The notes beneath the pieces were generated by a model that saw only the letters and a list, made by a program, of their open reading frames with translations, did no database searches and was not told the origin of the DNA. From Fibrobacteria bacterium (lineage in GTDB: Bacteria; Fibrobacterota; Fibrobacteria; UBA11236): DNA of 64,000 bases. The stretch is taken from the NCBI GenBank assembly GCA_041746255.1, contig JBGTHM010000099.1:1-64000 (forward strand), written 5' to 3'. The position numbers and the translations under genes are program-made. Positions 49,963 through 64,000 of the stretch are shown here, one piece after another; the stretch's first letter is position 1, and each line of letters starts with the position of its first letter.

Positions 49963-51357
49963 TTAAGGTATATAGGCGTTTTCGCCGTGGAGGCTGAGGT
50001 CGAGACCGTTATTCTCCTCTTCCGGAGTGACGCGCAGCCCAATAGTGGCGTCAACCACTTTCAGGATGATGTAGCTGCCGATAGCCGCGATGGCGATTGT
50101 GATCATTACGGAAAGCCCTTGGCGCATAAGCTGAGACAGGCTTCCGGCCAGAGACATGGCCACCCCGTCCACTTCATAGGTGGATACGATGGCTTCGTTG
50201 ACAAGGGGGCTGGCGAGCAGCCCGGTGGCCAGGGCTCCCAGGATTCCGCCGATGCCGTGGATACCGAAGGCGTCGAGGCTGTCGTCATATCCGAAGGCGT
50301 GCTTTAATTTGGATACCGCCAACAAACACACCACTCCCGAAGCCAATCCGATCAGCATCGCCGCGGGTACGGTTACGAACCCGGCGGCGGGGGTTATGGC
50401 CACCAGTCCGGCTACCATTCCCGAGGCGGCGCCTAAAACCGTCGCTTTGCCGTTGATGAATTTTTCTGCCATCATCCAACCCAGGGCGGCGGCGGCGGAG
50501 GCGAAATGGGTGGCGGCGAAGGCGCTGGTGGCAAGAGAGCTTGCGCCCAGGGCGCTACCGGCATTGAAGCCGAACCAGCCCACCCAGAGAAGGGCCGCGC
50601 CGATTAGACTGAAAACGATGTTGTGGGGCAGCATCGATTCCGTCGGATATCCGAGGCGCTTTCCCAGGACCAGGGCGCAAACCAGTGCGGAAACGCCGGA
50701 GCTGATATGTACCACCGTGCCTCCCGCAAAATCCAGGGCGGGGATGGTCGCGCCGTCGACCCAATTGAACAGACCGCCCGCTCCCCACACCATGTGAGCC
50801 AGCGGAAAATAGATGAAAGTGGACCAGAGAATGGTGAAAAGCACGAAGGCTCCGTATTTCATTCTTTCCGCGAAGGCCCCGCTGATGAGGGCCGGCGTAA
50901 TGATGGCGAACATGAGCTGGAAAAGCATGAAGGTTTGTTGGGGAATGGTCGCGGCATAGGTCGGATTGGGCTCGGCTCCCACGCCTTTAAGCAAGAAATA
51001 TTGAAAAGGATTTCCGAAGAAAGCGTTTCCTTCCCCGAAGGCAACGCTGTATCCATAAAAAGCCCATAATACGGAAACAATGCCCATGGCGGAAAAACTA
51101 TACATCATGGTGGAGAGGACGTTTTTACGTCGCGACAATCCGCCGTAAAAAAGCGCCAGCCCAGGAGCGGTCATGAGGAGTACCAGGGCCGCGCTTATCA
51201 TCATCCAGGCGTTGTCGCCCGTATCGATGGATAAAACGGCCTCGGTTTCCTTCGCGGTGGAGAGTTGCACGGCGCCCGCCAGTACCGATAGGAAGAAGGT
51301 TTTAGCCGAGGTCGTGAATTTACTGTAACCGGACATTTGTGATCCCTTTCTTGACAT
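49963..51357 (-). CDS. amt: Ammonium transporter (AmtB-like)
   Basis: LVLLMTAPGLALFYGGL, FQLMFAIIT, DFAGGTVVH, LWVGWFGFNAGS, DDSLDAFGIHG. Confidence 0.96.
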   Translation of the reverse strand: MSRKGSQMSGYSKFTTSAKTFFLSVLAGAVQLSTAKETEAVLSIDTGDNAWMMISAALVLLMTAPGLALFYGGLSRRKNVLSTMMYSFSAMGIVSVLWAFYGYSVAFGEGNAFFGNPFQYFLLKGVGAEPNPTYAATIPQQTFMLFQLMFAIITPALISGAFAERMKYGAFVLFTILWSTFIYFPLAHMVWGAGGLFNWVDGATIPALDFAGGTVVHISSGVSALVCALVLGKRLGYPTESMLPHNIVFSLIGAALLWVGWFGFNAGSALGASSLATSAFAATHFASAAAALGWMMAEKFINGKATVLGAASGMVAGLVAITPAAGFVTVPAAMLIGLASGVVCLLAVSKLKHAFGYDDSLDAFGIHGIGGILGALATGLLASPLVNEAIVSTYEVDGVAMSLAGSLSQLMRQGLSVMITIAIAAIGSYIILKVVDATIGLRVTPEEENNGLDLSLHGENAYIP

Positions 51358-51525: not shown

Positions 51526-52881
51526 TTATCCCTTGGTGGTCGAGATCGTGAAGTCGGCGTAGGCCGACATTCCGTGTTCGCCCATATCCAATCCCCCCAA
51601 TTCTTCTTCGGCGCTGACGCGAAGTCCCATGACCGCCTTCACTATGGCGAATATTACCAGCGCTGCGGCGAAGGTCGCGACGCCGTAGGCGAGCACACCC
51701 ACCGCCTGGATTCCCAGTTGCGCCAGGCCGGCTTTGGCTCCGAAAATCCCGACAGCCAAGGTTCCCCATATTCCGCATACGAGGTGAACCGAAATCGCTC
51801 CCACGGGGTCGTCGATACGGATTCGGTCGAAGAAAACCACCGAGAAGACCACAATCACGCCGGCGATGAAGCCGATGGCGATGGATGACCCCATGGCCAT
51901 CTGGTCCGCGCCAGCCGTGATGCCGACCAGTCCTGCGAGAACACCGTTGAGTATCATGGTGAGGTCCGGCTTCCTGGAGGTTACCATCAAAGTGAACATT
52001 GCTCCGATCGCTCCCGCCGATGCGGCCAGGGCCGTGGTTACCAGTACCAGGGAAGTCGCTCCGGGGTCGGCGCTCAAAACGGAACCGCCGTTGAATCCGA
52101 ACCATCCGAGCCAGAGAAGAAAAACACCGATAGTGGCCAAGGGCATGCTATGTCCGGGAATGGGACGGACTTTGCCGTCGACGAATCTTCCCAAACGGGG
52201 TCCCAGCAGAATTACCCCCGCCAAGGCGCCCCATCCGCCCACGGAATGCACCAGTGTGGATCCGGCGAAGTCGTAGAAACCCATGCCGTCCAACCATCCG
52301 GCGCCCCATTTCCACGATCCCAGGATGGGGTAGATAATGGCCACGAAAACCGTGGAAAAAACCAGGAAGGAGTTCAATTTGATACGCTCCGCAACAGCAC
52401 CTGAAACGATGGTGGCAGCGGTGGCTGCGAACATGGCCTGGAACAAAAAGTCAGTCCAGTACGTATAGCCTTCGTTGTAGGCGGAGGTTATACCCGCCTC
52501 GTCGGTAGTGATTCCGAAACCGGCGAAACCGAATATCCCCATGGAATCCTCGGCGAACCCAGGGTACATAAGATTGAATCCCACCAAAGCGTAGGTCACG
52601 ATTCCGATGGGGAGAATCAGGGCATTCTTGAAAAGGATATTGACCGTATTCTTCGCCTGGGTCAATCCCGATTCGAGCGAGGCGAAGCCAAGATGCATGA
52701 TAAACACCAAAGCCGCGGCCAACATCATCCAGATGTTGTTGGCTGTGAACATTTCCGCGCTGACACCCGCCGCCTCGGCCTCCTGGGCGGAAACCGCCCC
52801 CGCCAATAGGAGTGGCGCGGTTAAAAACAGCGCTCCGGCCCTGGGTAGCTTGAAGACTAATTGATTAATTCTTTTCGGCAT
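51526..52881 (-). CDS. amt: Ammonium transporter (second paralogue, Amt1-like)
   Basis: LVFIMHLGFASLESG, FLFQAMFAATAATIVSGAVAER, DFAGSTLVH, GWFGFNGGS, DDPVGAISVH. Confidence 0.96.
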   Translation of the reverse strand: MPKRINQLVFKLPRAGALFLTAPLLLAGAVSAQEAEAAGVSAEMFTANNIWMMLAAALVFIMHLGFASLESGLTQAKNTVNILFKNALILPIGIVTYALVGFNLMYPGFAEDSMGIFGFAGFGITTDEAGITSAYNEGYTYWTDFLFQAMFAATAATIVSGAVAERIKLNSFLVFSTVFVAIIYPILGSWKWGAGWLDGMGFYDFAGSTLVHSVGGWGALAGVILLGPRLGRFVDGKVRPIPGHSMPLATIGVFLLWLGWFGFNGGSVLSADPGATSLVLVTTALAASAGAIGAMFTLMVTSRKPDLTMILNGVLAGLVGITAGADQMAMGSSIAIGFIAGVIVVFSVVFFDRIRIDDPVGAISVHLVCGIWGTLAVGIFGAKAGLAQLGIQAVGVLAYGVATFAAALVIFAIVKAVMGLRVSAEEELGGLDMGEHGMSAYADFTISTTKG

Positions 52882-52954
52882 AATACACCCTTTTCTGATG
52901 ACTTGTCCTTCGTGTTCCCCCACGGGGCCACCTATTGCATCTGTCGGCTTACCA

Positions 52955-52972
52955 AAGCACTCTTTGTGCCAA
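52955..52972 (-). promoter_or_regulatory. Sigma-54 (-24/-12) promoter of amt
   Basis: Minus strand TTGGCACAAAGAGTGCTT (GG-N10-GC). Confidence 0.75.
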
Positions 52973-53139: not shown

Positions 53140-53838
53140 TTAGAAGGCGAGGTGTTGTTTAACCAGTTCGGGAGTGAGGTCGGAGGTATTACCGCTTAAG
53201 AGAATTGCGCCTCTATCCATGATGTGGTAGCCGTCTCCCAGGGATTTGGCAAATTCAAAAAATTGTTCCACCAGTACGATGGCGAGATCGCCTCGTTGCT
53301 TCAATTTTCGCAGGACGCTCTCGATTTCCCATATGATGGAAGGTTGTATTCCCTCAGTCGGTTCGTCCAACAGCAAAACTTTGGGATCGCCCAGTAAAGC
53401 GCGCGCAAGGGCCAATTGTTGCTGTTGTCCGCCACTCAGGTTTCCACCCAGCCGTCGTTTCATAGTTCCTAAAAAAGGAAATAAATCGTAAATCTCGTCT
53501 TCGGGCACTTTCTTCAACCCATCGGTCCTCGCTTGGAGGCCTAACTGCAAGTTTTCGAACAACGTTAATTTGGGAAAAATTTCTCGGCCTTGAGGTACAT
53601 AGGCGAGGCCTAGCTTCGCTCTTTTATAGGGAGTAAAGGACGTGATATCCTTTTCTTCCCAGGTTATGCGACCCTTGCGCGCGGGTAATAAGCCCATCAG
53701 GGTTTTCAGTAAAGTGGTTTTTCCCACCCCGTTTCGTCCCATAATGGCAGTAACCGTGCCAGGCGCGAACTCCATGTTCACCTCACGCAAAATGCGGCTT
53801 TCCCCGTAGTAGGCGTCGATATTTTCGATTTTAAGCAT
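53140..53838 (-). CDS. urtE: Urea ABC transporter ATP-binding subunit
   Basis: GRNGVGKTT, YVPQGREIFP, LSGGQQQQLA, DEPTEGIQPSII. Confidence 0.92.
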   Translation of the reverse strand: MLKIENIDAYYGESRILREVNMEFAPGTVTAIMGRNGVGKTTLLKTLMGLLPARKGRITWEEKDITSFTPYKRAKLGLAYVPQGREIFPKLTLFENLQLGLQARTDGLKKVPEDEIYDLFPFLGTMKRRLGGNLSGGQQQQLALARALLGDPKVLLLDEPTEGIQPSIIWEIESVLRKLKQRGDLAIVLVEQFFEFAKSLGDGYHIMDRGAILLSGNTSDLTPELVKQHLAF

Positions 53839-53875: not shown

Positions 53876-54625
53876 TTATCCGCGTGTGGAGCGGCCCAGG
53901 TAACGCTCAATCACTTCTGGGTTCTCCTGTACCGATTCCAGGCTGCCTTCGGTCAATACTCGCCCTTCGCAAAGTACGGTAACCTTGCGGGCCAGTTGTC
54001 GCACAAACTCCATGTCATGCTCGATAACGATGATGGAATGCCTCCCCGACAAATCCAGTAGCAGCCTGCCGGTCTTCTCTGTTTCCTCGTCCGTCATTCC
54101 CGCCGCAGGTTCGTCTATAAGTAAAAGTTTCGGATCCATGGCTATCAGCATTCCGATTTCCAACCATTGCTTCTGTCCATGTGACAGGTGGGAAGCCTGC
54201 CGGTTCAGGGAATCGGCCAATCCGACGGTGAAGGCGATATCCCCGATGCTACTGCGAAGCGTTGAGGCGCTTCGGGAGAACAGAGTGGAGAAAACCCCTT
54301 TTGCATCCTTATGAGCCAACAGGAGATTGTCATAAACGCTGAGGCTACCGAATACGGTGGGAGTCTGAAATTTTCTCCCCACGCCCAGGGAAACGATTTC
54401 CGCTTCGGTTAATTTCGTCAAATCCTTCCCCGCCATTTCGGCTTTTCCGGAAGTGGGTTTGGTTTTTCCGCACAGCACATCGAGAAAAGTGGTCTTACCG
54501 GCTCCGTTGGGTCCGATAACGACACGTAATTCATTTTCAAAAAGTTCGAAGGTATCGATATCCAAAGCTTTGAACCCGTCGAAGGATACGCAAAGGCTTT
54601 CAACGTATAGCTGTAACTCCTTCAT
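53876..54625 (-). CDS. urtD: Urea ABC transporter ATP-binding subunit
   Basis: VSFDGFKAL, GPNGAGKTT, GRKFQTP, LSHGQKQWLEIGML. Confidence 0.92.
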   Translation of the reverse strand: MKELQLYVESLCVSFDGFKALDIDTFELFENELRVVIGPNGAGKTTFLDVLCGKTKPTSGKAEMAGKDLTKLTEAEIVSLGVGRKFQTPTVFGSLSVYDNLLLAHKDAKGVFSTLFSRSASTLRSSIGDIAFTVGLADSLNRQASHLSHGQKQWLEIGMLIAMDPKLLLIDEPAAGMTDEETEKTGRLLLDLSGRHSIIVIEHDMEFVRQLARKVTVLCEGRVLTEGSLESVQENPEVIERYLGRSTRG

Positions 54626-55724
54626 GGGTCGCTTCCTCCTTTCCATCGAGCGGAGATTTTTTCCTGGGAAAAACTTTTCGAACCACGCCGGTAATTCCCT
54701 GGGGAAAGAAGAGCACGACTCCGATAAACAGGCTCCCTAGAAAATAAAGCCAGGTTCCCGGAAAGCGTGCCGTGAGGTAGCTATAACAGAGGTTGACTCC
54801 CAGCGCCCCCACCACCGCGCCTACCAGGGTTCCACGGCCGCCTACGGCGACCCAAATCACCATTTCGATGGAACTCCTTACGTCCATTCGGCCGGGAGTA
54901 ATGATTCCGGTTTGCGGAACATAGAGCATGCCGCCAATTGCGCCTAATACGGCCGCAAACACGAATACGAAAACCTTGAAGTTCGTGACCGAATAACCGG
55001 TGAAGCGGACGCGGTTCTCACTGTCCCGGATAGCGATAAGCAATCGTCCCAACTTTGATCCCACCACGGCTCGACAGGCGATATACGCCAGGATTAAAAC
55101 AGTTGCGCTGACAAAATACAGGGCTTTTTTTGTGCCTTGCGAAGAAAGATCGAAGCCTAGTAGAGTTTTGAAATCGGTAAGTCCGTTGGTGCCACCGAGC
55201 ATGGTTTCGTTGCGCAGGAAAATCAGCCATAGCGCAAGGGCTAAAGCCTGGGTAATGATGGAGAAATACACTCCTTTAATGCGGCTGCGGAATGCCAGAA
55301 AACCAAAAATCAATGCGAAGAGGCCGGGCACGGCGATGGATAGGATTATCGCCAGGGGAAAATTGTGGAACGGTTGCCAGAACAGGGGAAGTTTCTCGAC
55401 CTGGTTCCACACCATGAAATCCGGTATGGCGATGCCGTAAACCCCTTCGGTGCCGGTTTCGAGCAGCATATGCATGCCGAGTCCATAGCCCCCCATGGCG
55501 AAAAAGGCCGCCTGGCAGAGCGAGAGAATGCCGGTGAATCCCCAGATTAAATCGATCCCCAGCGCGGCGATGGCGAAACAAAGGTAACGCCCCAATAGAT
55601 TCAGAGTTAAATCGGAAACGAGGCCTAGCGCATTTCCGATGGGAAGCGCGACTATGAAAATCAGCACCATCCAGGCGGGACCTGGATAGGCGCGTAACAG
55701 GGTGAAATATTCAGCCTTCTTCAT
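54600..55724 (-). CDS. urtC: Urea ABC transporter permease
   Basis: DLIWGFTGILSL, PDFMVWN, RSRIKGVYFSIITQAL, GGTNGLTDF, SIEMVIWVAVGGRGT. Confidence 0.93.
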   Translation of the reverse strand: MKKAEYFTLLRAYPGPAWMVLIFIVALPIGNALGLVSDLTLNLLGRYLCFAIAALGIDLIWGFTGILSLCQAAFFAMGGYGLGMHMLLETGTEGVYGIAIPDFMVWNQVEKLPLFWQPFHNFPLAIILSIAVPGLFALIFGFLAFRSRIKGVYFSIITQALALALWLIFLRNETMLGGTNGLTDFKTLLGFDLSSQGTKKALYFVSATVLILAYIACRAVVGSKLGRLLIAIRDSENRVRFTGYSVTNFKVFVFVFAAVLGAIGGMLYVPQTGIITPGRMDVRSSIEMVIWVAVGGRGTLVGAVVGALGVNLCYSYLTARFPGTWLYFLGSLFIGVVLFFPQGITGVVRKVFPRKKSPLDGKEEATHEGVTAIR

Positions 55725-57429
55725 ATCGCCCTTTCGCCGGAAAAAGGCCGGAGGGTTTTTGTTGCAGGAAAAAAATGACCAAGACCAGCAAAGTGACTTT
55801 GGCGTATACGGCTTGGAGGTAGGGCTCCATGAATTTATTGAGAAGGCCGATTCCCAGTCCGGAAAATAAGGCTCCCGTCAATTTCCCAACACCCCCGGTA
55901 ACCACCACCAAAAACGAATCCACGATATAGTTTTGCCCCATTCCCGGATCCACGTTGCCGACCTGGGTCATGGCCCAGCCCGCAACGCCCGCGATACCGG
56001 TTCCCAGTGCGAAAGTCAAGGTGTCGATACGGCGAGTATGAATGCCCAAGCAAGAGCTCATGGCGCGATTCTGGGTGACGGCGCGAATGCGCATGCCTAG
56101 CCCGGTGCGATAGAAAAGTATGGCCATGCAGAGTACGATGGTTGCGGTTAATGCGATTATGAAAAGGCGATTGTAGGGAAGGACTACGGTGGGAAAAATC
56201 TCCCAGCCTTGTGACAACAAAGCTGGCGTTGACACGGAGGTAAGATCCCCGAAGATGTGGCGCGCGCCCTGGATTAATAATAGGCTTACTCCCCAAGTCG
56301 CCAGAAGGGTTTCCAATGGCCTTCCATATAAGCGTCGGATGATGAGAAATTCCACCAGCATGCCCATGCCGGCTGCCACCAAAAAAGCTGCGGGTAGGGA
56401 GGCGGGGAAAAACCACCCGGAATAGGATGCGGGTAGGTAGCGGGTGAATAACTCCTGTACAACAAAAGTGGCATACGCTCCTATCATCATAAACTCGCCA
56501 TGCGCCATGTTGATTACGCCCATGAGCCCGAATATCACGGCCAATCCCAGGGCCATGAGTATGAGGATGGAACCGAGGCTGATTCCGGAAAAGAAATTCT
56601 GTATCGCACCGGTAACCTGGGTCCATGAGTTGATACGGGCAAGACTGCGATTTATCGCATCACGCACCGCGCTTTCCGCTTCAGGGTAGGTCCCCTCTCC
56701 GTCTTGCGTCACTCGAAATTTCAAATCGGAAACGGCATGCACTGCGTGGATTTTTCCCAGACCCTCGGCCGCGGCCAGGCGCTCCATGGGATTTTCGGAA
56801 GCAAGCCGCAGCCGGAAAAGGGATTCCTGCAAGGTATGCGCCACGGATTTATCCGTTTCCCTGGTCAGGGCATCTTCAAGCATGGGGATGGTTTGTGCCT
56901 CGCCCAACGAAGCCAGGTTGCGGGCAGCCTGCTTACGCAAATCGGATGCTGGGCTGCGTAATTGCATGGAAGTCAGGAAAGGTTGAATTACCGCTCTCAT
57001 GGCTCGATTGGTTTCGAACTCCACCAAATCATCGGGCGCTTGTAGGAGAATTTCTCCGTCCGATGCGGTTATGGGAGTGAAGGGGTAGGGCATATAAAGA
57101 GGCACCCAAAGGGCATCGTCCTGGATCATTTCGGCACCCGCAACGACCAGCAACGGAGCATCACCCTCAATAGGCGAATACCAATAAACGGATCCCTTAT
57201 AGACAGCTTCCAAAAAGGGATGTAATTGGGGGTCTCCCATTGCGGACAAGTCTTCGATGGCTCCGAGAGCCTGGTCCTCCTCACCATGCAAGGATTGAAA
57301 GATGGAGTCGATATGGGAAGTTCGCGAAGAATTCCCGCTAGGGAGTAAGGAACTCTCCCCGGCCATGCTTGGGTTGCCTGCGAATAATAGGATTACCCAG
57401 GCCAGGGATATAAGGATCATCGGCGACAT
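55711..57429 (-). CDS. urtB: Urea ABC transporter permease with N-terminal periplasmic HEAT-like extension
   Basis: FGLMGVINMAHGEF, LYGRPLETLLATWG, RAVTQNR, YIVDSFLVVVTGGVG. Confidence 0.92.
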   Translation of the reverse strand: MSPMILISLAWVILLFAGNPSMAGESSLLPSGNSSRTSHIDSIFQSLHGEEDQALGAIEDLSAMGDPQLHPFLEAVYKGSVYWYSPIEGDAPLLVVAGAEMIQDDALWVPLYMPYPFTPITASDGEILLQAPDDLVEFETNRAMRAVIQPFLTSMQLRSPASDLRKQAARNLASLGEAQTIPMLEDALTRETDKSVAHTLQESLFRLRLASENPMERLAAAEGLGKIHAVHAVSDLKFRVTQDGEGTYPEAESAVRDAINRSLARINSWTQVTGAIQNFFSGISLGSILILMALGLAVIFGLMGVINMAHGEFMMIGAYATFVVQELFTRYLPASYSGWFFPASLPAAFLVAAGMGMLVEFLIIRRLYGRPLETLLATWGVSLLLIQGARHIFGDLTSVSTPALLSQGWEIFPTVVLPYNRLFIIALTATIVLCMAILFYRTGLGMRIRAVTQNRAMSSCLGIHTRRIDTLTFALGTGIAGVAGWAMTQVGNVDPGMGQNYIVDSFLVVVTGGVGKLTGALFSGLGIGLLNKFMEPYLQAVYAKVTLLVLVIFFLQQKPSGLFPAKGRYEEG

Positions 57430-57449
57430 GGTGTGGGCCCCGTGCAATC

Positions 57450-57495: not shown

Positions 57496-58794
57496 TTATT
57501 TAGTGGCTTTGGTATAGGTTCCTTGATGATTCACGTGATCGCAGCTTTTATCGGGGCTGGTATACATCGACCAAGGCTCCGGATTGACCAGCCCTTTGGA
57601 TTTCCATACGACTTTGAATTGCCCATCTTTTCTGATTTCACCGATATAAACGGGCTTGGCCAAATGGTGATTGTTGGCATCCATTTGAACTTTGCCGCCG
57701 GGGGCGTCGTTCATGAGCCCGTATAGAGCGGGACGGACTTTGTCGACGTCGAAGGATTTGGCTTTTTCGACGGCGTCTTTCCAGAGGTAAACTCCGACAT
57801 AAGACCAGTGAATCGGGTCGCCTGTGACGCGATTGGCTCCGCCCGGAAGTTTATTCTTGACCGCGAAAGCTTTGAAATTCTTGGTGAAGCGGGCGTTTTC
57901 GGGAGTCTTTACCGATTGGAAATAATTCCAAGCTGCGAGATGGCCTACGAGAAATTCGGTATCCATCGAACGCAATTCGTCTTCGGCTACCGAAAAAGCC
58001 ATGATGGGCACCATGGAAGAGGTTAGGCCCTGGTTCGCGAACTCTTTATAAAAGGGAACGTTGGAGTCGCCGTTGATGGTGGAGAGTACCGCGGTTTTTC
58101 CGCCAGCGGAAAATCTCTTGATCTTCTGTACTATAGTCTGATAATCCTGGTGGTGGAAGGGCGTATACTCCTCCACGATATCCGATTCAGGAATTCCCTT
58201 AGCCAATAAAAAGGCTTTCAAGATTTTATTAGCTGTACGCGGAAAAACATAATCCGTTCCCAAAAGGTAGAAGCGTTTATAATCGCCTCCTTCCTTGCTC
58301 ATCAAATACTCAGCCGCGGGAATCAACTGTTGATTGGGAGTGGCGCCGGTATAGATGACATTACGGCTGCATTCCTCTCCTTCGTATTGGACGGGGTAAA
58401 AGAGTAAGCCATTATTGTTTTCGAAAACCGGCAGCACGGATTTTCGGGAAACCGAGGTCCAGCAGCCGAATACCACGGAGACTTTGTCCTGTAACAGCAG
58501 GCGTTTGGACTGTTCTGCGAACAAATCCCAATCCGAAGCGGGATCCACCACCACCGGGTCAATTTGCTTTCCGAGCACGCCGCCTTTGGCATTGATTTCT
58601 TCCACGGCCATCAAAACCACGTCGCGTAAAGAAACTTCCGAGATTGCCATGGTACCGCTCAGGGAATGCAGCACTCCAATCTTGACTTTTTCTACGGCTT
58701 TTTTTTCAGCTTGGGCGCCCCAAGGCAAGGCCAGGCCCGCGATGAGCGATAACCCGCGGGCGGTTCGAAATAGTGGTGTTTTCCAATTTAACAT
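57496..58794 (-). CDS. urtA: Urea ABC transporter substrate-binding protein
   Basis: KIGVLHSLSGTMAISE, FGCWTSVSRKSVLP, FYPVQYEGEE, GTDYVFPRTAN, TINGDSN. ATG at 58794 follows GGAGG. Confidence 0.95.
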   Translation of the reverse strand: MLNWKTPLFRTARGLSLIAGLALPWGAQAEKKAVEKVKIGVLHSLSGTMAISEVSLRDVVLMAVEEINAKGGVLGKQIDPVVVDPASDWDLFAEQSKRLLLQDKVSVVFGCWTSVSRKSVLPVFENNNGLLFYPVQYEGEECSRNVIYTGATPNQQLIPAAEYLMSKEGGDYKRFYLLGTDYVFPRTANKILKAFLLAKGIPESDIVEEYTPFHHQDYQTIVQKIKRFSAGGKTAVLSTINGDSNVPFYKEFANQGLTSSMVPIMAFSVAEDELRSMDTEFLVGHLAAWNYFQSVKTPENARFTKNFKAFAVKNKLPGGANRVTGDPIHWSYVGVYLWKDAVEKAKSFDVDKVRPALYGLMNDAPGGKVQMDANNHHLAKPVYIGEIRKDGQFKVVWKSKGLVNPEPWSMYTSPDKSCDHVNHQGTYTKATK

Positions 58795-58849: not shown

Positions 58850-58866
58850 AGCAATTCCAGTGCCAC
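58850..58866 (-). promoter_or_regulatory. Sigma-54 promoter of urtABCDE
   Basis: Minus strand GTGGCACTGGAATTGCT, matching TGGCAC-N5-TTGC. Confidence 0.85.
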
Positions 58867-59072
58867 GGACTGAAAAATTTCTGCCTGCACAATTGCAGCG
58901 AATTTCCGTACAAGTGGCAAACAATTTCCAGGAGAATGGACGAGAGTGTAAATTAGTGGCAGGGCTTGTAACGTCGTATCATCTCTTGGCAGTAAATGTC
59001 TCTTTTTGGAAAGCACCCGCAGTTGCTTAGGGGGCCCTAACTCAGCAAGTCACTCATTCCGGTTGGGATTAT

Positions 59073-59089
59073 CTGGCACTATTTTTGCA
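59073..59089 (+). promoter_or_regulatory. Sigma-54 promoter of the urease operon
   Basis: CTGGCACTATTTTTGCA, matching TGGCAC-N5-TTGC, about 40 bp before ureD. Confidence 0.85.
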
Positions 59090-59127: not shown

Positions 59128-59973
59128 ATGGTAGTGGCAACCCTTCCGAAAGCGACGCGGTTGCGGGTTGAAAAAGTAAGGGGACTCTCGCGTCTAGTAC
59201 TCCATAGCGAGCAGCCCCCCGTCAAAGCCTTGTCTCCGCGGAACCGTACCGGAGCCGCCCGGATCGTTTTAAGCAGCTATGGCGGCGGTATCGTCCAGGG
59301 GGATCATGCGCGGGTAGAGTTGGAATGCGGCGTGGGAGCCGGTGTTTTTCTGGGGACGCAATCCTCTACTAAAATCTATCCCACTCCCGAGCGATCCAGC
59401 GGTCAAACTTTTCACGGTACGGTCCATGCTGCCGGACTGATAGTCTCCTGGCCAGATCCAATCGTTCCCTATGCGGGAAGTCGGTTTAATCAAAACCAGG
59501 TTTGGCGGGTTGAGTCGGATGGCAATTTGTTGGCGGCTGATTGGCTGCAACCGGGACGGGAAGCCAATGGTGAAAGGTTCCGCTATGAAAGGTTCACAAG
59601 CGATACCTCGATTCGTTTGGCGGGGGAGTTGGTCATTCATGATCGCTTCGAATTTCGCCCGGGGGTGCAAAACCCGCGAAGTCCGGCCCATTTCGGCGGA
59701 TTCGGAGGAATGCTTAACATCTATATAGTGGGGGATAGGTTGTGCGGAAATATGCGGGAGCTTGAAGGGCCTTTGCTTGCGTGTAACCGACCGGTTAGTC
59801 CGGGATCTCCAGCCCGCCTGTTGGTGACTTTCTCCGCGCTTCGTCCCAATGTTTTTTTAGTGCGCGCCCTGGGCATCGCGAAAGCCGATCTCGATCCGTT
59901 GGCGGACTTGATTTGTGCGCAGTTGGCCAGGCCGGAACTCTTAGGATTCAATCCCCTGGAAAGGAAATGGTAG
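59128..59973 (+). CDS. ureD: Urease accessory protein UreD
   Basis: YGGGIVQGD, TQSSTKIY, PDPIVPYAGS, GREANGERF. Confidence 0.9.
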   Translation: MVVATLPKATRLRVEKVRGLSRLVLHSEQPPVKALSPRNRTGAARIVLSSYGGGIVQGDHARVELECGVGAGVFLGTQSSTKIYPTPERSSGQTFHGTVHAAGLIVSWPDPIVPYAGSRFNQNQVWRVESDGNLLAADWLQPGREANGERFRYERFTSDTSIRLAGELVIHDRFEFRPGVQNPRSPAHFGGFGGMLNIYIVGDRLCGNMRELEGPLLACNRPVSPGSPARLLVTFSALRPNVFLVRALGIAKADLDPLADLICAQLARPELLGFNPLERKW

Positions 59974-59979
59974 AGAAGA

Positions 59980-60771
59980 ATGCATCTAACCCCCAAAGAA
60001 CTGGAAAAATTGATGCTGCATGGCGCGGGCTTTCTGGCGCAAAAGCGTCTTTGGCGAGGCTTGCGTCTTAATTATCCCGAAGCCACCGCTTTATTGGCCA
60101 CTCAATTGCTGGAGTTTATCCGGGACGGCGAAACAGTGGCCGAGCTGATGGAAAAAGGCAAGCGCCTGCTGGGTTTCGCGGATGTACTGCCGGGTGTGGC
60201 GGATATGCTTGAAGATGTGCAGGTGGAAGGCACCTTTCCCGACGGCGTCAAGCTGGTTACCGTGCATTTTCCGATTTGTACCGATAATGGCGACCTTGAC
60301 TTGGCATTATATGGTTCGGGCTTGATTCCGAACCCAACAACTTTCGAAAAACGCTATTCAGGAGCCTACAATGAAACGGAAGGTTTAGAAACAGTGCCAG
60401 GCGATCAATCCCTTATGGAAGGCTACCTTGAGCTCAACGAAGAGCGCGAGGTGCTAAGCCTGGCTGTTACCAACACCGGCGACCGGCCGGTTCAAGTGGG
60501 ATCGCATTATCCGTTCTTCGAGGTCAATGCGGCCTTGCTCTTCGATCGGGCGCGGGCATTGGGTTTTCGATTGAACATTCCCAGCGGGACGGCGGTTCGA
60601 TTCGAACCGGGTGAAGCCAAAAAGGTGGAACTGGTGGCCTTGGCCGGTGAACGGCTCATCTACGGAGGAAATGGTTTGATTCAAGGCGCCTGGAATGCGG
60701 AGGATGCGGAGAAACTGGCCGATGCCGCGCAACAGCAGGGCTTCCGGCATGAAAAGGAGGGGAGGGAATGA
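59980..60771 (+). CDS. ureAB: Fused urease gamma+beta subunit
   Basis: Gamma part [34 protein letters not shown]; beta part [36 protein letters not shown]; one ORF. Confidence 0.95.
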
Positions 60772-62483
60772 AGCTCAATCGACAAGGTTATGCGGATATG
60801 TACGGCCCCACCACCGGGGATTGTATCCGCTTGGCGGACACGGAATTATTCATCGAAGTCGAAAAAGATTTCGCCGTATACGGGGAAGAATGCAAATTCG
60901 GCGGAGGCAAGGTGCTGCGCGACGGCATGGGGCAAGCCGCCGGGGCGATACCGGAAAGCGCGCTCGATTTGCTCATCACCAACGCCCTGGTGGTGGACTA
61001 TACCGGAATCTACAAGGCCGATATCGGAATCAAGCACGGACGGATCGCCGCCATCGGCAAAGCCGGAAACCCGCATACCATGCCGGGAGTGACTCCGGGT
61101 ATGCTGGTGGGGCCTACCACCGAGGTGGTGGCCGGAGAAGGGCAAATCGTGACCGCGGGCGGCATCGATTGCCACATTCATTTCATTTGCCCCCAACAAA
61201 TCGACGAAGCCCTGGCCTCGGGAATAACGACCATGCTTGGTGGTGGAACGGGTCCGGCCACCGGAACCAATGCCACCACTTGCACCCCCGGCGCAATCCA
61301 TATCGAAATGATGTTGCGCGCCACCGATGCTTACCCGCTCAATTTCGGATTTTTCGGAAAAGGCAACTCGTCGCTTCCCGGCGGTTTGCCCGAGCAGGTT
61401 GAGGCCGGCGCCATCGGACTGAAGTTGCATGAGGATTGGGGCACCACGCCGGCCGCCATCGATTGCTGTCTTTCTGTGGCGGAAGCTTACGACGTGCAAG
61501 TGGCCATTCACACCGACACCCTGAATGAATCGGGATTCGTGGAAGCCACCATCGAGGCTTTCAAGGGCCGGACCATCCATACCTTCCACACCGAAGGCGC
61601 GGGCGGGGGGCATGCGCCCGATATCATACGGGTTTGCGGATTGCCCAACGTGCTACCTTCCTCCACTAACCCGACCCGGCCATATTCGGTAAATACCATC
61701 GACGAACATCTCGACATGCTCATGGTCTGCCATCACCTCGATAAGAATATTCCCGAGGACGTGGCCTTCGCCGAGAGCCGCATACGCGGGGAAACCATCG
61801 CCGCCGAGGATATTCTGCATGATATGGGAGCCATATCCATCATGGCGTCCGATTCGCAGGCCATGGGCCGTGTCGGAGAAGTGGTTTTGCGTACCTGGCA
61901 AACAGCCCATAAAATGAAAGTGCAGCGCGGCGCGCTGGAATCGGATAGGCAGTCGATCCGAAAAAGCGATAACTTTCGGGTCAAGCGGTATATCGCCAAA
62001 TACACTATCAATCCCGCCTTGGCCCATGGCATCGCCCATGAGGTCGGCTCCGTAGAGGTCGGCAAGTTGGCGGACCTAGTCCTGTGGAAGCCCGCCTTTT
62101 TCGGTATCAAACCGGAAATGGTGCTCAAAGGCGGAATCATTGTCCAGGCGCAAATGGGCGATCCCAATGCCTCCATTCCCACACCGCAGCCTTCGTTTTC
62201 CCGCCCGATGTTCGGAGCGATGGGTAAGGCGCCGGCCCGCAACTCCCTCGCTTTCGTCTCGCAAGCCTCGCTGCCGAAAGTTGAATCCGAATACCATCTC
62301 GGCAAACGCGCGGTTGCGGTTCGGGGCTGTCGAAACCTCGGGAAAAAGGACATGGCGCTTAACGATGCCATGCCCCATATCGAGGTCAATCCGGAAACCT
62401 ACGTAGTCAAGGCCGACGGTGAGAGGCTGACCTGCGAACCCGCGGAACGCCTTCCGCTCAGCCGACTGTATTCCTTTTTTTGA
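60768..62483 (+). CDS. ureC: Urease alpha subunit
   Basis: [48 protein letters not shown]. Confidence 0.98.
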
Positions 62484-63187
62484 TGACAGGCGGCGAAGTG
62501 AAGACCCTGGGTTGGATGGAATTATTGCAACTGGCGGATTCGGCCTTGCCGGCCGGCGGATTCGCTTTTTCCAACGGATTGGAAAGTCTGGCCAAGTTGG
62601 GTCAATTGCCCTCGCTATCCGCTTTCGAAGCGTATCTGCAAAGTTACCTGGAGCAGGTTGTGCAAGGTGAGCTGGCTTTTCTTAATTCCTTTATGCGTTC
62701 CTATCGTGGCGAGGATGGTGAGCCGCTAGCAATTGTGGCCGAAGAATGGAACGCCTTTCTGACTGCGCCTTCCTCGCGCCGCGCCAGTCTGTCGCAGGGC
62801 CGTGCTTGGTTGCAACTCGCAAAAGTGTTCGACCCAGCCGCCGAAACCGAGGTGCGTGAACGGCTGTCCCAAGCCGGGAATGAGTCGCAGTTCCATTTTC
62901 TCCCGGTCTTCGCCTTGGTGTTGGCGGCCCTGGGAGCGTCCGGGTCGCAGGTCCGCACTTTGTTTCTGCATATTTCCCTGAGGGACCAGATCAGTTCGGC
63001 TATCCGGCTGGGCCTCGTGGGTTCGCTGCAGGGCCAGGCTTTGCATCGGAATCAGGTGAACCTGTGTGTCACCCTGGAGCGGAATTCGGAAAGCCTCGAT
63101 TTCCGTCAGGCTGTCAAATCCACACCATTATTGGAACTGGCCCAAAATCACCACGAAAGATTGTATTCCCGTCTCTTTCAGAGCTGA
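62483..63187 (+). CDS. ureF: Urease accessory protein UreF
   Basis: LLQLADSALPAGGFAFSNGLE, SSAIRL, HERLYSRLFQS. Confidence 0.93.
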   Translation: MTGGEVKTLGWMELLQLADSALPAGGFAFSNGLESLAKLGQLPSLSAFEAYLQSYLEQVVQGELAFLNSFMRSYRGEDGEPLAIVAEEWNAFLTAPSSRRASLSQGRAWLQLAKVFDPAAETEVRERLSQAGNESQFHFLPVFALVLAALGASGSQVRTLFLHISLRDQISSAIRLGLVGSLQGQALHRNQVNLCVTLERNSESLDFRQAVKSTPLLELAQNHHERLYSRLFQS

Positions 63188-63233: not shown

Positions 63234-64000
63234 ATGCCTTCATCCCAACACGAAGAAAACGGCCACGAGCATTATCACCCGGAAACCGGTATGCACCGGC
63301 ATCACCATGGCGAAGGCGGGCATACCCATGAGCCACTAGATTCTCCCGGCGATTTCAACCTTCGTGAACTGTCCAAACCCGACAGGGATTATCGCAGTCG
63401 GGCCTTCACCATCGGCATCGGCGGCCCGGTAGGCTCCGGGAAAACCGCATTGTTAAAAGCACTGTGCGAGTCGCTGCGCGAGAAATACAGTCTTGGAGTG
63501 GTGACGAATGACATTTTCACTCGCGAAGACGGTGAATTTCTGGTAAGAAACAAAGCGCTGTCCGAAGACCGTATCACGGCGGTGGAAACGGGCGGCTGCC
63601 CGCATGCCGCCATTCGCGAGGATGTCTCACTCAACATGGCCGCTCTGGAGGATATGATGGCCAAGCATAAGGGACGGATCGATTTGCTTTTCGTAGAAAG
63701 CGGCGGCGACAACCTTGCGGCTCATTTCGGAAGGGAGCTTGCCGATTACACCGTTTATGTCATCGATGTTTCGGGGGGCGATAAGGTCCCTCGCAAAGGC
63801 GGACCGGGGATTACCCAGGCAGACCTGCTCGTCATAAACAAAACCGATTTGGCCACCTTTGTCGGAGCCGACTTGTCGGTGATGGACAGGGATGCGAAAC
63901 GTATGCGGGGAGAAGGGCCTGTGATATTCGCCCAGGCGAGCCATGGAAAAGGTGTGGCTGAGATTCGCGAGCATATTCTTGCGGGATGGCGGGTAGCAAC
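63234..64000 (+). CDS. ureG: Urease accessory GTPase UreG with His-rich N-terminal extension (runs off the window end; absent from the ORF track)
   Basis: Hand translation from the ATG at 63234 (RBS AAGGAG): [102 protein letters not shown]. Confidence 0.95.

Follow-up and report, generated by a model that had tools for sequence, protein, structure and literature searches.

The window analysed here, a stretch of 64,000 nucleotides (positions 1 to 64,000 of contig JBGTHM010000099.1, assembly GCA_041746255.1, from a Fibrobacteria bacterium), carries a urease operon in the order ureD-ureAB-ureC-ureF-ureG (59128-64037, all on the plus strand, the last bases of ureG lying just past the end of the window), as established from the listing of open reading frames (ORFs) and by direct reading of the sequence (Table 1). 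The operon is intact and conserved. Its first structural gene, ureAB, encodes the gamma and beta subunits as one chain and is followed by a separate gene for the alpha subunit, ureC. This two-chain bacterial subtype of urease groups in our trees with the single-chain ureases of eukaryotes.

A urease operon with two structural chains

In the single 263-aa UreAB polypeptide a gamma domain is followed by a beta domain, which is the architecture of the family NF009671 (PRK13192, bifunctional urease subunit gamma/beta). UreAB passes this model with 312.9 bits against a cut-off of 243, its residues 1-257 covering profile positions 1-230 of 231, and remains below the cut-off of the Helicobacter-type UreA model NF010592 (243 bits versus 353). 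The protein contains the segments [33 protein letters not shown] and [22 protein letters not shown]. Pfam recognizes urease alpha and amidohydrolase domains in UreC, where H136, H138, K219, H221, H248, H274, C321, H322 and D362 all lie within conserved motifs, and in a printed alignment the catalytic motifs are identical to those of pigeon pea urease. We take these residues to play the roles assigned by work on the Klebsiella aerogenes and jack bean enzymes, namely a His-x-His pair, the carbamylated lysine, two histidines, the aspartate and the Cys-His of the flap. The maturation genes ureD, ureF and ureG are co-encoded in the operon. UreD contains the motifs YGGGIVQGD and TQSSTKIY and had no NCBIfam match at E <= 0.001. 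We infer from family membership that the gamma-beta and alpha chains would together hydrolyse urea in UreC, at a di-nickel centre that includes a carbamylated lysine, that UreD, UreF and UreG would load the nickel and that the neighbouring UrtABCDE system would bring urea into the cell.

Table 1. Coordinates of the urease operon and of the adjacent nitrogen genes and promoter-like sites, in window positions.
Feature	Position	Strand	Details
Two ammonium transporter genes	51526-52923, 49963-51357	-	TIGR00836, 399.9 and 450.9 bits vs cut-off 343.3
urtE	53140-53838	-	Urea importer gene, model score above cut-off
urtD	53876-54646	-	Urea importer gene, model score above cut-off
urtC	54600-55724	-	Urea importer gene, model score above cut-off
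urtB	55711-57447	-	Urea importer gene, model score above cut-off
urtA	57496..58794	-	Urea ABC transporter substrate-binding protein; TIGR03407, 588.5 bits vs cut-off 492.75
Second sigma-54-type promoter-like site	58850..58865	-	Exact match, 56 nt upstream of likely urtA start 58794
Sigma-54-type promoter-like site	59074..59089	+	TGGCAC-N5-TTGCA, exact match, 39 nt upstream of ureD ATG
ureD	59128..59973	+	Urease accessory protein, 281 aa; Pfam PF01774 UreD, 144.2 bits
ureAB	59980..60771	+	Fused gamma-beta structural subunit, 263 aa
UreAB gamma domain	59980-60276	+	Residues 1-99; Pfam PF00547 Urease_gamma
UreAB linker	60277-60399	+	Residues 100-140; ALYGSGL at residue 109
UreAB beta domain	60400-60687	+	Residues 141-236; Pfam PF00699 Urease_beta
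UreAB C-terminal tail		+	Residues 237-263
ureC	60768..62483	+	Catalytic alpha subunit, 571 aa; TIGR01792 (urease_alph), 956.8 bits vs cut-off 680
ureF	62480..63187	+	Urease accessory protein, 235 aa, TTG start as listed; Pfam PF01730, 76.4 bits
ureG	63234..64000 (to 64037 on contig)	+	Nickel GTPase, 267 aa; TIGR00101, 284.6 bits vs cut-off 204.2

The ureAB stop codon TGA (60769-60771) overlaps the ureC ATG (60768) in the tetranucleotide ATGA (60768-60771), a layout likely to reflect translational coupling. A stop and a separate ATG are thus found in the window where eukaryotic ureases have a single gamma-beta-alpha polypeptide. A first-pass annotation had reported this overlap, the 263-aa ORF and the peptides mentioned above, all of which are present in the sequence, and had described the enzyme as one frameshift away from the single-chain form. 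The junction was therefore compared in 36 loci of the same subtype (15 other named genomes, 19 Fibrobacterota relatives and 2 Bacteroidota plasmids), 35 of which hold both ureAB and ureC. The two genes were fused in none of these 35. The same four-base overlap, ATGA or GTGA, occurred in 16 of them (17 if L040 is taken to start at its ATG and not at the TTG chosen by script); in the remaining loci the two genes either overlap by 1-11 bases or are 1-46 bases apart. These observations bear on the possibility that the split is merely a sequencing or assembly frameshift in a single-chain gene, for which it could be argued that, the frames overlapping by four bases, one indel could join ureAB and ureC. 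However, the related loci that keep a stop and a separate start come from independent assemblies, and the start of UreC matches in position that of bacterial UreC proteins. The contig obtained by a second assembler from run X1 is also identical to the window between 60300 and 61300 (0 differences, 0 indels), although X1 is probably the source sample and the comparison hence not independent. We consider the probability of such an artefact to be negligible. The distance of one frameshift is a matter of geometry only, as the split is consistently kept and plant urease has, between beta and alpha, about 18 additional residues (256-273) that are matched by neither UreAB nor UreC.

Two further observations concern this junction. 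In the plasmid locus of Hymenobacter radiodurans (L057, 2663-5653), 651 bases with an annotated hypothetical protein lie between ureAB and ureC; this ureC is unannotated, its match ends at query residue 555 and the urease cluster looks damaged. In some relatives ureC is surrounded by long open frames (up to 827 aa), which were considered as candidate bacterial single chains and rejected, being overlapping frames in GC-rich DNA in which ureAB and ureC stay separate.

Linker and phylogeny of the two-chain subtype

A comparison of UreAB with all PDB sequences ranked the ureases of pigeon pea (257 bits) and jack bean (253 bits) first. Residues 1-261 aligned to residues 1-255 of pigeon pea urease (4g7e) in one stretch that includes the linker between the gamma and beta domains, and this linker was aligned unbroken to both 4g7e and jack bean 3la4, whereas Helicobacter UreA scored 205 bits in two stretches. 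The best solved relative of UreC was likewise pigeon pea urease (863.8 bits, residues 3-571 to 274-840), followed by those of K. aerogenes (849.7 bits), Sporosarcina pasteurii (832 bits) and Helicobacter pylori (813 bits). An alignment of 11 named eukaryotes and 12 bacteria revealed the common linker segment P-I-C-x-x-x-G-[DN]-x-x-LAL-[YH]-GS-[GF]-L, which is absent from Helicobacter; UreAB of the window carries this eukaryotic-type motif. Its core, counted as AL[YHQ..]GS[GF]L, was found in 119 of the 120 best two-domain hits, in 98 of the 120 best long hits (most misses being near variants or proteins with shifted N-termini) and in 33/35 subtype loci, as compared to 0/8 other two-chain loci and 0/28 three-chain loci. 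Most bacteria have the variant GSGL, most eukaryotes GSFL. It is to be noted that the Pfam family PF18473 (Urease_linker) describes the plant beta-alpha linker and not the gamma-beta linker. It had no match in the window at E <= 10, a weak test for a plant-specific model that matched the 1 plant tried and missed coral and chytrid ureases. Three proteins of 473-529 aa (P0121, P0129 and P0185) carry, ahead of the gamma-beta part, 210-275 residues not matching UreD, which could reflect either wrongly called starts in GC-rich DNA or one more fusion.

For the phylogenetic analysis, named three-chain and other two-chain ureases were taken from plasmid records and genome loci, and eukaryotic ureases from a search for longer homologues. 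A search for UreC representatives at 50% identity merged most ureases into few clusters and supplied ten full-length representatives, used in one tree only; four of them formed very long branches and were dropped from the joined tree. The latter comprises 58 of about 85 labelled sources and was built without all rep_ proteins, L073-L075 (long branches), L027, L030, L057 (ureC cut at 555), L022 and L011, and without the duplicates L007, L009, L010, L012, L013 and L015. The Fibrobacterota loci L035, L039, L040, L042, L043, L045, L048-L050 and L052 are in no tree. Divergent three-chain ureases with about 44-47% UreC identity to the window (L024-L033, from Chloroflexota, Methylomirabilota, a Burkholderiales metagenome-assembled genome (MAG) and Peptococcaceae) served as outgroup.

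The subtype and the eukaryotes formed a joint clade in each of three trees. A quick tree of the alpha part (UreC, LG+C20 with posterior mean site frequencies (PMSF), 76 rows and 570 columns) united 19 bacteria and 16 eukaryotes with a Shimodaira-Hasegawa-like approximate likelihood-ratio (SH-aLRT) support of 99, the eukaryotes themselves receiving 99. A quick tree of the gamma and beta parts without linker and tail (75 rows, 205 columns) united 27 bacteria and 16 eukaryotes at 98, with 93 for the eukaryotes and 86 for the bacterial side. In the careful joined tree of all three parts (LG+C20 PMSF, 58 rows, 774 columns) the joint clade was supported at 100/100 (bootstrap/SH-aLRT) and the eukaryotes at 100/99. 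There the window falls outside the eukaryotic clade and within its bacterial sister clade, in a subgroup of Fibrobacterota where it is sister to a genome of the same genus (100/100). In a FastTree run the eukaryotic side took 19/19 unnamed single-chain proteins, some of them with the bacterial-looking GSGL, so that single chain and eukaryotic clade coincide in this sample; P0151, P0172 and P0237 (830-880 aa, GSGL motifs), considered as possible bacterial single chains, were rejected on account of their placement within the eukaryotic side.

The other two-chain ureases occupied separate positions in the tree (Helicobacter, Aminobacter/Methylobacterium, a Klebsiella plasmid and two Streptomyces types), indicating that the gamma-beta fusion happened several times. 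Helicobacter urease grouped with the three-chain ureases of Bacillus, Clostridium and Paenibacillaceae, and forcing it together with the eukaryotes cost 66.5 log-likelihood units (p = 0.00097 in the approximately unbiased test). The fusions of Aminobacter/Methylobacterium, Klebsiella and Streptomyces are, on their sequences, independent. In the plasmid loci L070, L072, L073, L074 and L075 gamma and beta are fused through short linkers that do not carry the motif; the gene order in Aminobacter and Methylobacterium is ureE-ureF-ureAB-ureC-ureG-ureD, and the Klebsiella fusion is carried on an IncN plasmid of Klebsiella michiganensis.

Such recurrent fusion, although it took place apart from the subtype, raises the question of whether the likeness to eukaryotic ureases could itself be due to convergence or to a tree artefact, the linker having arisen twice and the clade reflecting long-branch or compositional attraction; the margin by which UreC prefers the plant over the Klebsiella enzyme is indeed small (863.8 versus 849.7 bits). 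Yet two partitions devoid of the linker each recovered the clade (99 and 98), the joined tree was obtained under a site-heterogeneous model with no long end branches flagged, and the linkers resemble each other in an ordered motif over some 15 residues and not in length alone. We regard this explanation as highly improbable. We conclude that the compared sequences show the two-chain bacterial subtype to be the sister group of the eukaryotic single-chain ureases, with which it shares a homologous gamma-beta linker.

The subtype is widespread, its hosts belonging to Fibrobacterota, Bacteroidota, Gemmatimonadota, Hydrogenedentota, Planctomycetota and other bacteria of the PVC (Planctomycetes-Verrucomicrobia-Chlamydiae) group, and Desulfomonilaceae, which amounts to at least seven phyla. 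The named loci nearest to that of the window place its genome in Fibrobacterota. Of 31 Fibrobacterota genomes searched, 18 had a urease alpha gene scoring above the curated cut-off, and 15/18 genomes of the window's family had a match. The closest relative of the window urease belongs to a genome of the same genus (93% UreC identity), and the window urease was mostly inherited vertically. A Fibrobacterales MAG and a Planctomycetota MAG (L004 and L008) pair at 100/99 and L002 falls among Fibrobacterota loci; this intermixing of phyla suggests that the entire operon has passed between bacteria repeatedly. The window copy is an ordinary member, deep in the bacterial side and one of very many. The kinship with eukaryotes put forward in the first-pass annotation stands at the level of the family, through the trees and through the linker, which aligns to pigeon pea urease in one stretch, and in none of the three trees did the subunits nest among ordinary bacterial ureases. 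The window's own copy is neither special, since it lies deep within a many-member, multi-phylum clade already named by NF009671, nor a fusion intermediate.

Maturation and nitrogen genes around the urease

The subtype also stands out by its maturation genes. UreG of the window has about 57 residues before its GTPase core, with 10 histidines in the first 33, and solved UreG chains align to it from residue 58 on only. A His-rich UreG extension (3-15 histidines in the 70 residues before the P-loop) with no UreE detectable in the locus was observed in 35/35 subtype loci, and the window has the same combination. By contrast, in 15 loci with UreE the UreG N-termini measured 7-23 residues with few or no histidines, L076 departing from this only through an open frame that extends far upstream. 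The domain UreE_C (PF05194) was found in 0/31 Fibrobacterota genomes searched, and UreE_N (PF02814) was absent from the window's own genome (0/1; 100% complete). In place of UreE, the His-rich N-terminus of UreG most likely holds the nickel. Plants and fungi are devoid of UreE and use a His-rich UreG, and Ure7 of Cryptococcus uses its His-rich N-terminus (PMC3663189). As for the accessory proteins of the window, an ESM Atlas look-up of UreD listed bacterial UreD clusters only, PDB entries for UreG were bacterial only, and a homologue search with UreG residues 1-62 returned only the query itself and the same-genus relative.

The operon is part of a larger nitrogen island. The urea importer genes urtA-E are divergent from it, on the minus strand, and are followed by the two ammonium transporter genes; urtB-E, encoding permeases and ATPases, scored above the cut-offs of TIGR03409, TIGR03408, TIGR03411 and TIGR03410. 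The ORF listed for urtA runs to a GTG at 59016 and TIGR03407 covers residues 110-482 of this long frame, which is likely over-extended, the true start likely being the ATG at 58794, a signal-peptide-like methionine after AGGAGG. In UrtB (578 aa) the model covers residues 282-573, and some 280 N-terminal residues with a signal-like start have no assigned family. Beyond ureG, the contig carries genes for a BBP2-type beta-barrel porin and for a P-II nitrogen regulator (L077 1282-2665, corresponding to contig 64282-65665), and no ureE.

The sequence TGGCAC-N5-TTGCW, which we take to be the sigma-54 consensus, has 2 exact matches in the window as compared to 0.05 expected, a number reached in 0/100 shuffles. 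Both lie in the divergent region between ure and urt and face outward, the urtA-side site falling inside the over-extension of the urtA ORF. With one mismatch allowed, 4 sites were counted versus 1.82 expected, which is not significant; one of these (52956-52971, minus strand) precedes the ammonium transporter gene that starts at 52923 by about 33 nt. No suggestive inverted repeat that could be an activator site was detected between the two exact sites. The ure and urt genes are thus probably transcribed from two sigma-54 promoters under nitrogen control, and the motifs suggest that, together with the ammonium transporter site, they may form one sigma-54 nitrogen regulon. With importer, urease and ammonium transporters in one island, this hot-spring-type Fibrobacterota lineage could live on urea nitrogen.

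Proposed order of events and comparison with known ureases

Our overall reading is that the window carries a working, chromosomal nickel-urease operon of an uncultured Fibrobacterota bacterium, belonging to a two-chain bacterial subtype that is sister to the eukaryotic enzymes and that marks a path from three chains to two and then to one (3-to-2-to-1), and judging from the sequences we give it a probability of about 80%. Gamma and beta would have fused once, in a bacterial ancestor, eukaryotes would have received the two-chain form from bacteria, and the beta-alpha fusion would have followed on the eukaryotic stem. We infer this order of bacterial fusion, transfer and eukaryotic fusion from parsimony and operon context. 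The more specific proposal that the eukaryotic enzyme and its UreE-less set of UreD, UreF and His-rich UreG derive from one ancient transfer from the subtype before the sampled eukaryotes radiated, beta and alpha being fused afterwards, is tentative, and we would grant it slightly less than an even chance.

Several points weigh against this scenario. The two groups are reciprocally monophyletic and such a topology alone gives no direction of transfer. Monophyly of the bacterial side is itself only moderately supported in the joined tree (82/97, in 80% of the bootstrap trees), and in the quick alpha-only tree this side is paraphyletic, the Fibrobacterota locus L051 branching before the split (96), so that the eukaryotes may be either sister to the subtype or nested in it. 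With its phyla intermixed, the bacterial clade points to no particular donor phylum. The root was set by the chosen outgroup, and three-chain sampling was limited to plasmid records and 17 genome loci, with few Alphaproteobacteria and without cyanobacteria, Thaumarchaeota or Asgard archaea. Finally, the AlphaFold model of UreAB alone is mediocre (mean predicted local distance difference test score, pLDDT, 70.4). Foldseek ranked jack bean urease first with this model (E 1.2e-24), but with a root-mean-square deviation of 17 A and a superposition domain by domain only, since the absence of the alpha chain leaves the two domains wrongly placed; the isolated model is, as a prediction, uninformative on the shape of the linker.

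Transfer in the opposite direction would have the subtype descend from a eukaryotic single-chain urease whose gene entered a bacterium and was later divided at the beta-alpha boundary. Two sister groups with a common linker are compatible with such a history, reciprocal monophyly leaving the direction unfixed. Against it, the joint clade arises within three-chain bacterial and archaeal ureases, so that an extra transfer and a fission would be needed, and the eukaryotes are monophyletic (100/99) with no bacterium nested inside and with all 19 unnamed single chains on their side, while one bacterial sequence branches before the split in the alpha-only tree. Furthermore, the bacterial structural genes stand in an operon with ureD, ureF and ureG, in the window beside urtABCDE, and this route would have to reassemble such an operon; in Cryptococcus the accessory genes are unclustered (PMC3663189). 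We find this reversed scenario unlikely, and the suggestion of a transfer relic from eukaryotes, also made in the first-pass annotation, gains no support, the bacteria not being nested in eukaryotes and the genes standing in a normal bacterial operon. If the preferred path from bacterial two-chain to eukaryotic single-chain enzyme is true, the debated 3-to-1 transition passed through a two-chain stage that is still living, and a large two-chain clade outside Helicobacter, sister to eukaryotes, makes the path directly testable. The interest lies in this evolutionary reading of the family and not in the window's copy itself.

The fusion as such is known already, both in Bacteroidetes and as the NCBI-named family NF009671. 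Published work describes a ureAB fusion outside Helicobacter for Cytophaga hutchinsonii and Blattabacterium, with urease activity measured in Blattabacterium-enriched extracts (PMC2768785), and uses the ureAB fusion as an example of gene fusion (PMC4009401). A 2018 review states that two-chain ureases had so far been found only in Helicobacter, treats the primitive number of chains as an unanswered question and cites a direct 3-to-1 transition in which the Helicobacter two-chain forms are not intermediates (PMC6077230). A full-text literature search, whose coverage leaves out most subscription journals, found no paper stating the sister relation between the subtype and eukaryotes.

Compared to these systems, the Bacteroidota two-chain ureases of C. 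hutchinsonii and Blattabacterium Bge have the same fused gamma-beta gene followed by ureC, and those of Persicobacter, Hymenobacter, Pontibacter and others belong to the same clade as the window (58-68% UreAB identity). The window differs in its host phylum, Fibrobacterota, in a UreAB linker longer than that of the NF009671 profile (231 positions for the whole profile, against a UreAB of 263 aa) and in its full set of ureD, ureF and ureG, Blattabacterium being described as without accessory genes (PMC2768785). Three-chain ureases (K. aerogenes UreABC with UreDEFG; S. pasteurii) have the same catalytic subunit, residues and UreD/F/G helpers as the window; however, their gamma and beta genes are separate, UreE is present, UreG has no His-rich extension and they lie outside the clade of subtype and eukaryotes. 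Helicobacter (UreA, gamma-beta; UreB, alpha; 1E9Z, 6ZJA) resembles the window in being a nickel urease with gamma and beta fused and alpha separate, but its fusion is independent, with no long linker and the motif in 0/3 Helicobacter loci, and it has UreE and a short UreG N-terminus. The eukaryotic single-chain ureases (jack bean 3LA4/4H9M, pigeon pea 4G7E; fungal, algal, coral and mollusc enzymes) rank first among solved structures for UreAB as well as for UreC and form the sister clade in all trees. They have a homologous linker and beta C-terminal tail and, for plants and fungi, the same UreE-less maturation with a His-rich UreG (PMC3663189). They differ from the window in that its beta and alpha parts are two proteins, with no counterpart of the plant residues 256-273 between them.

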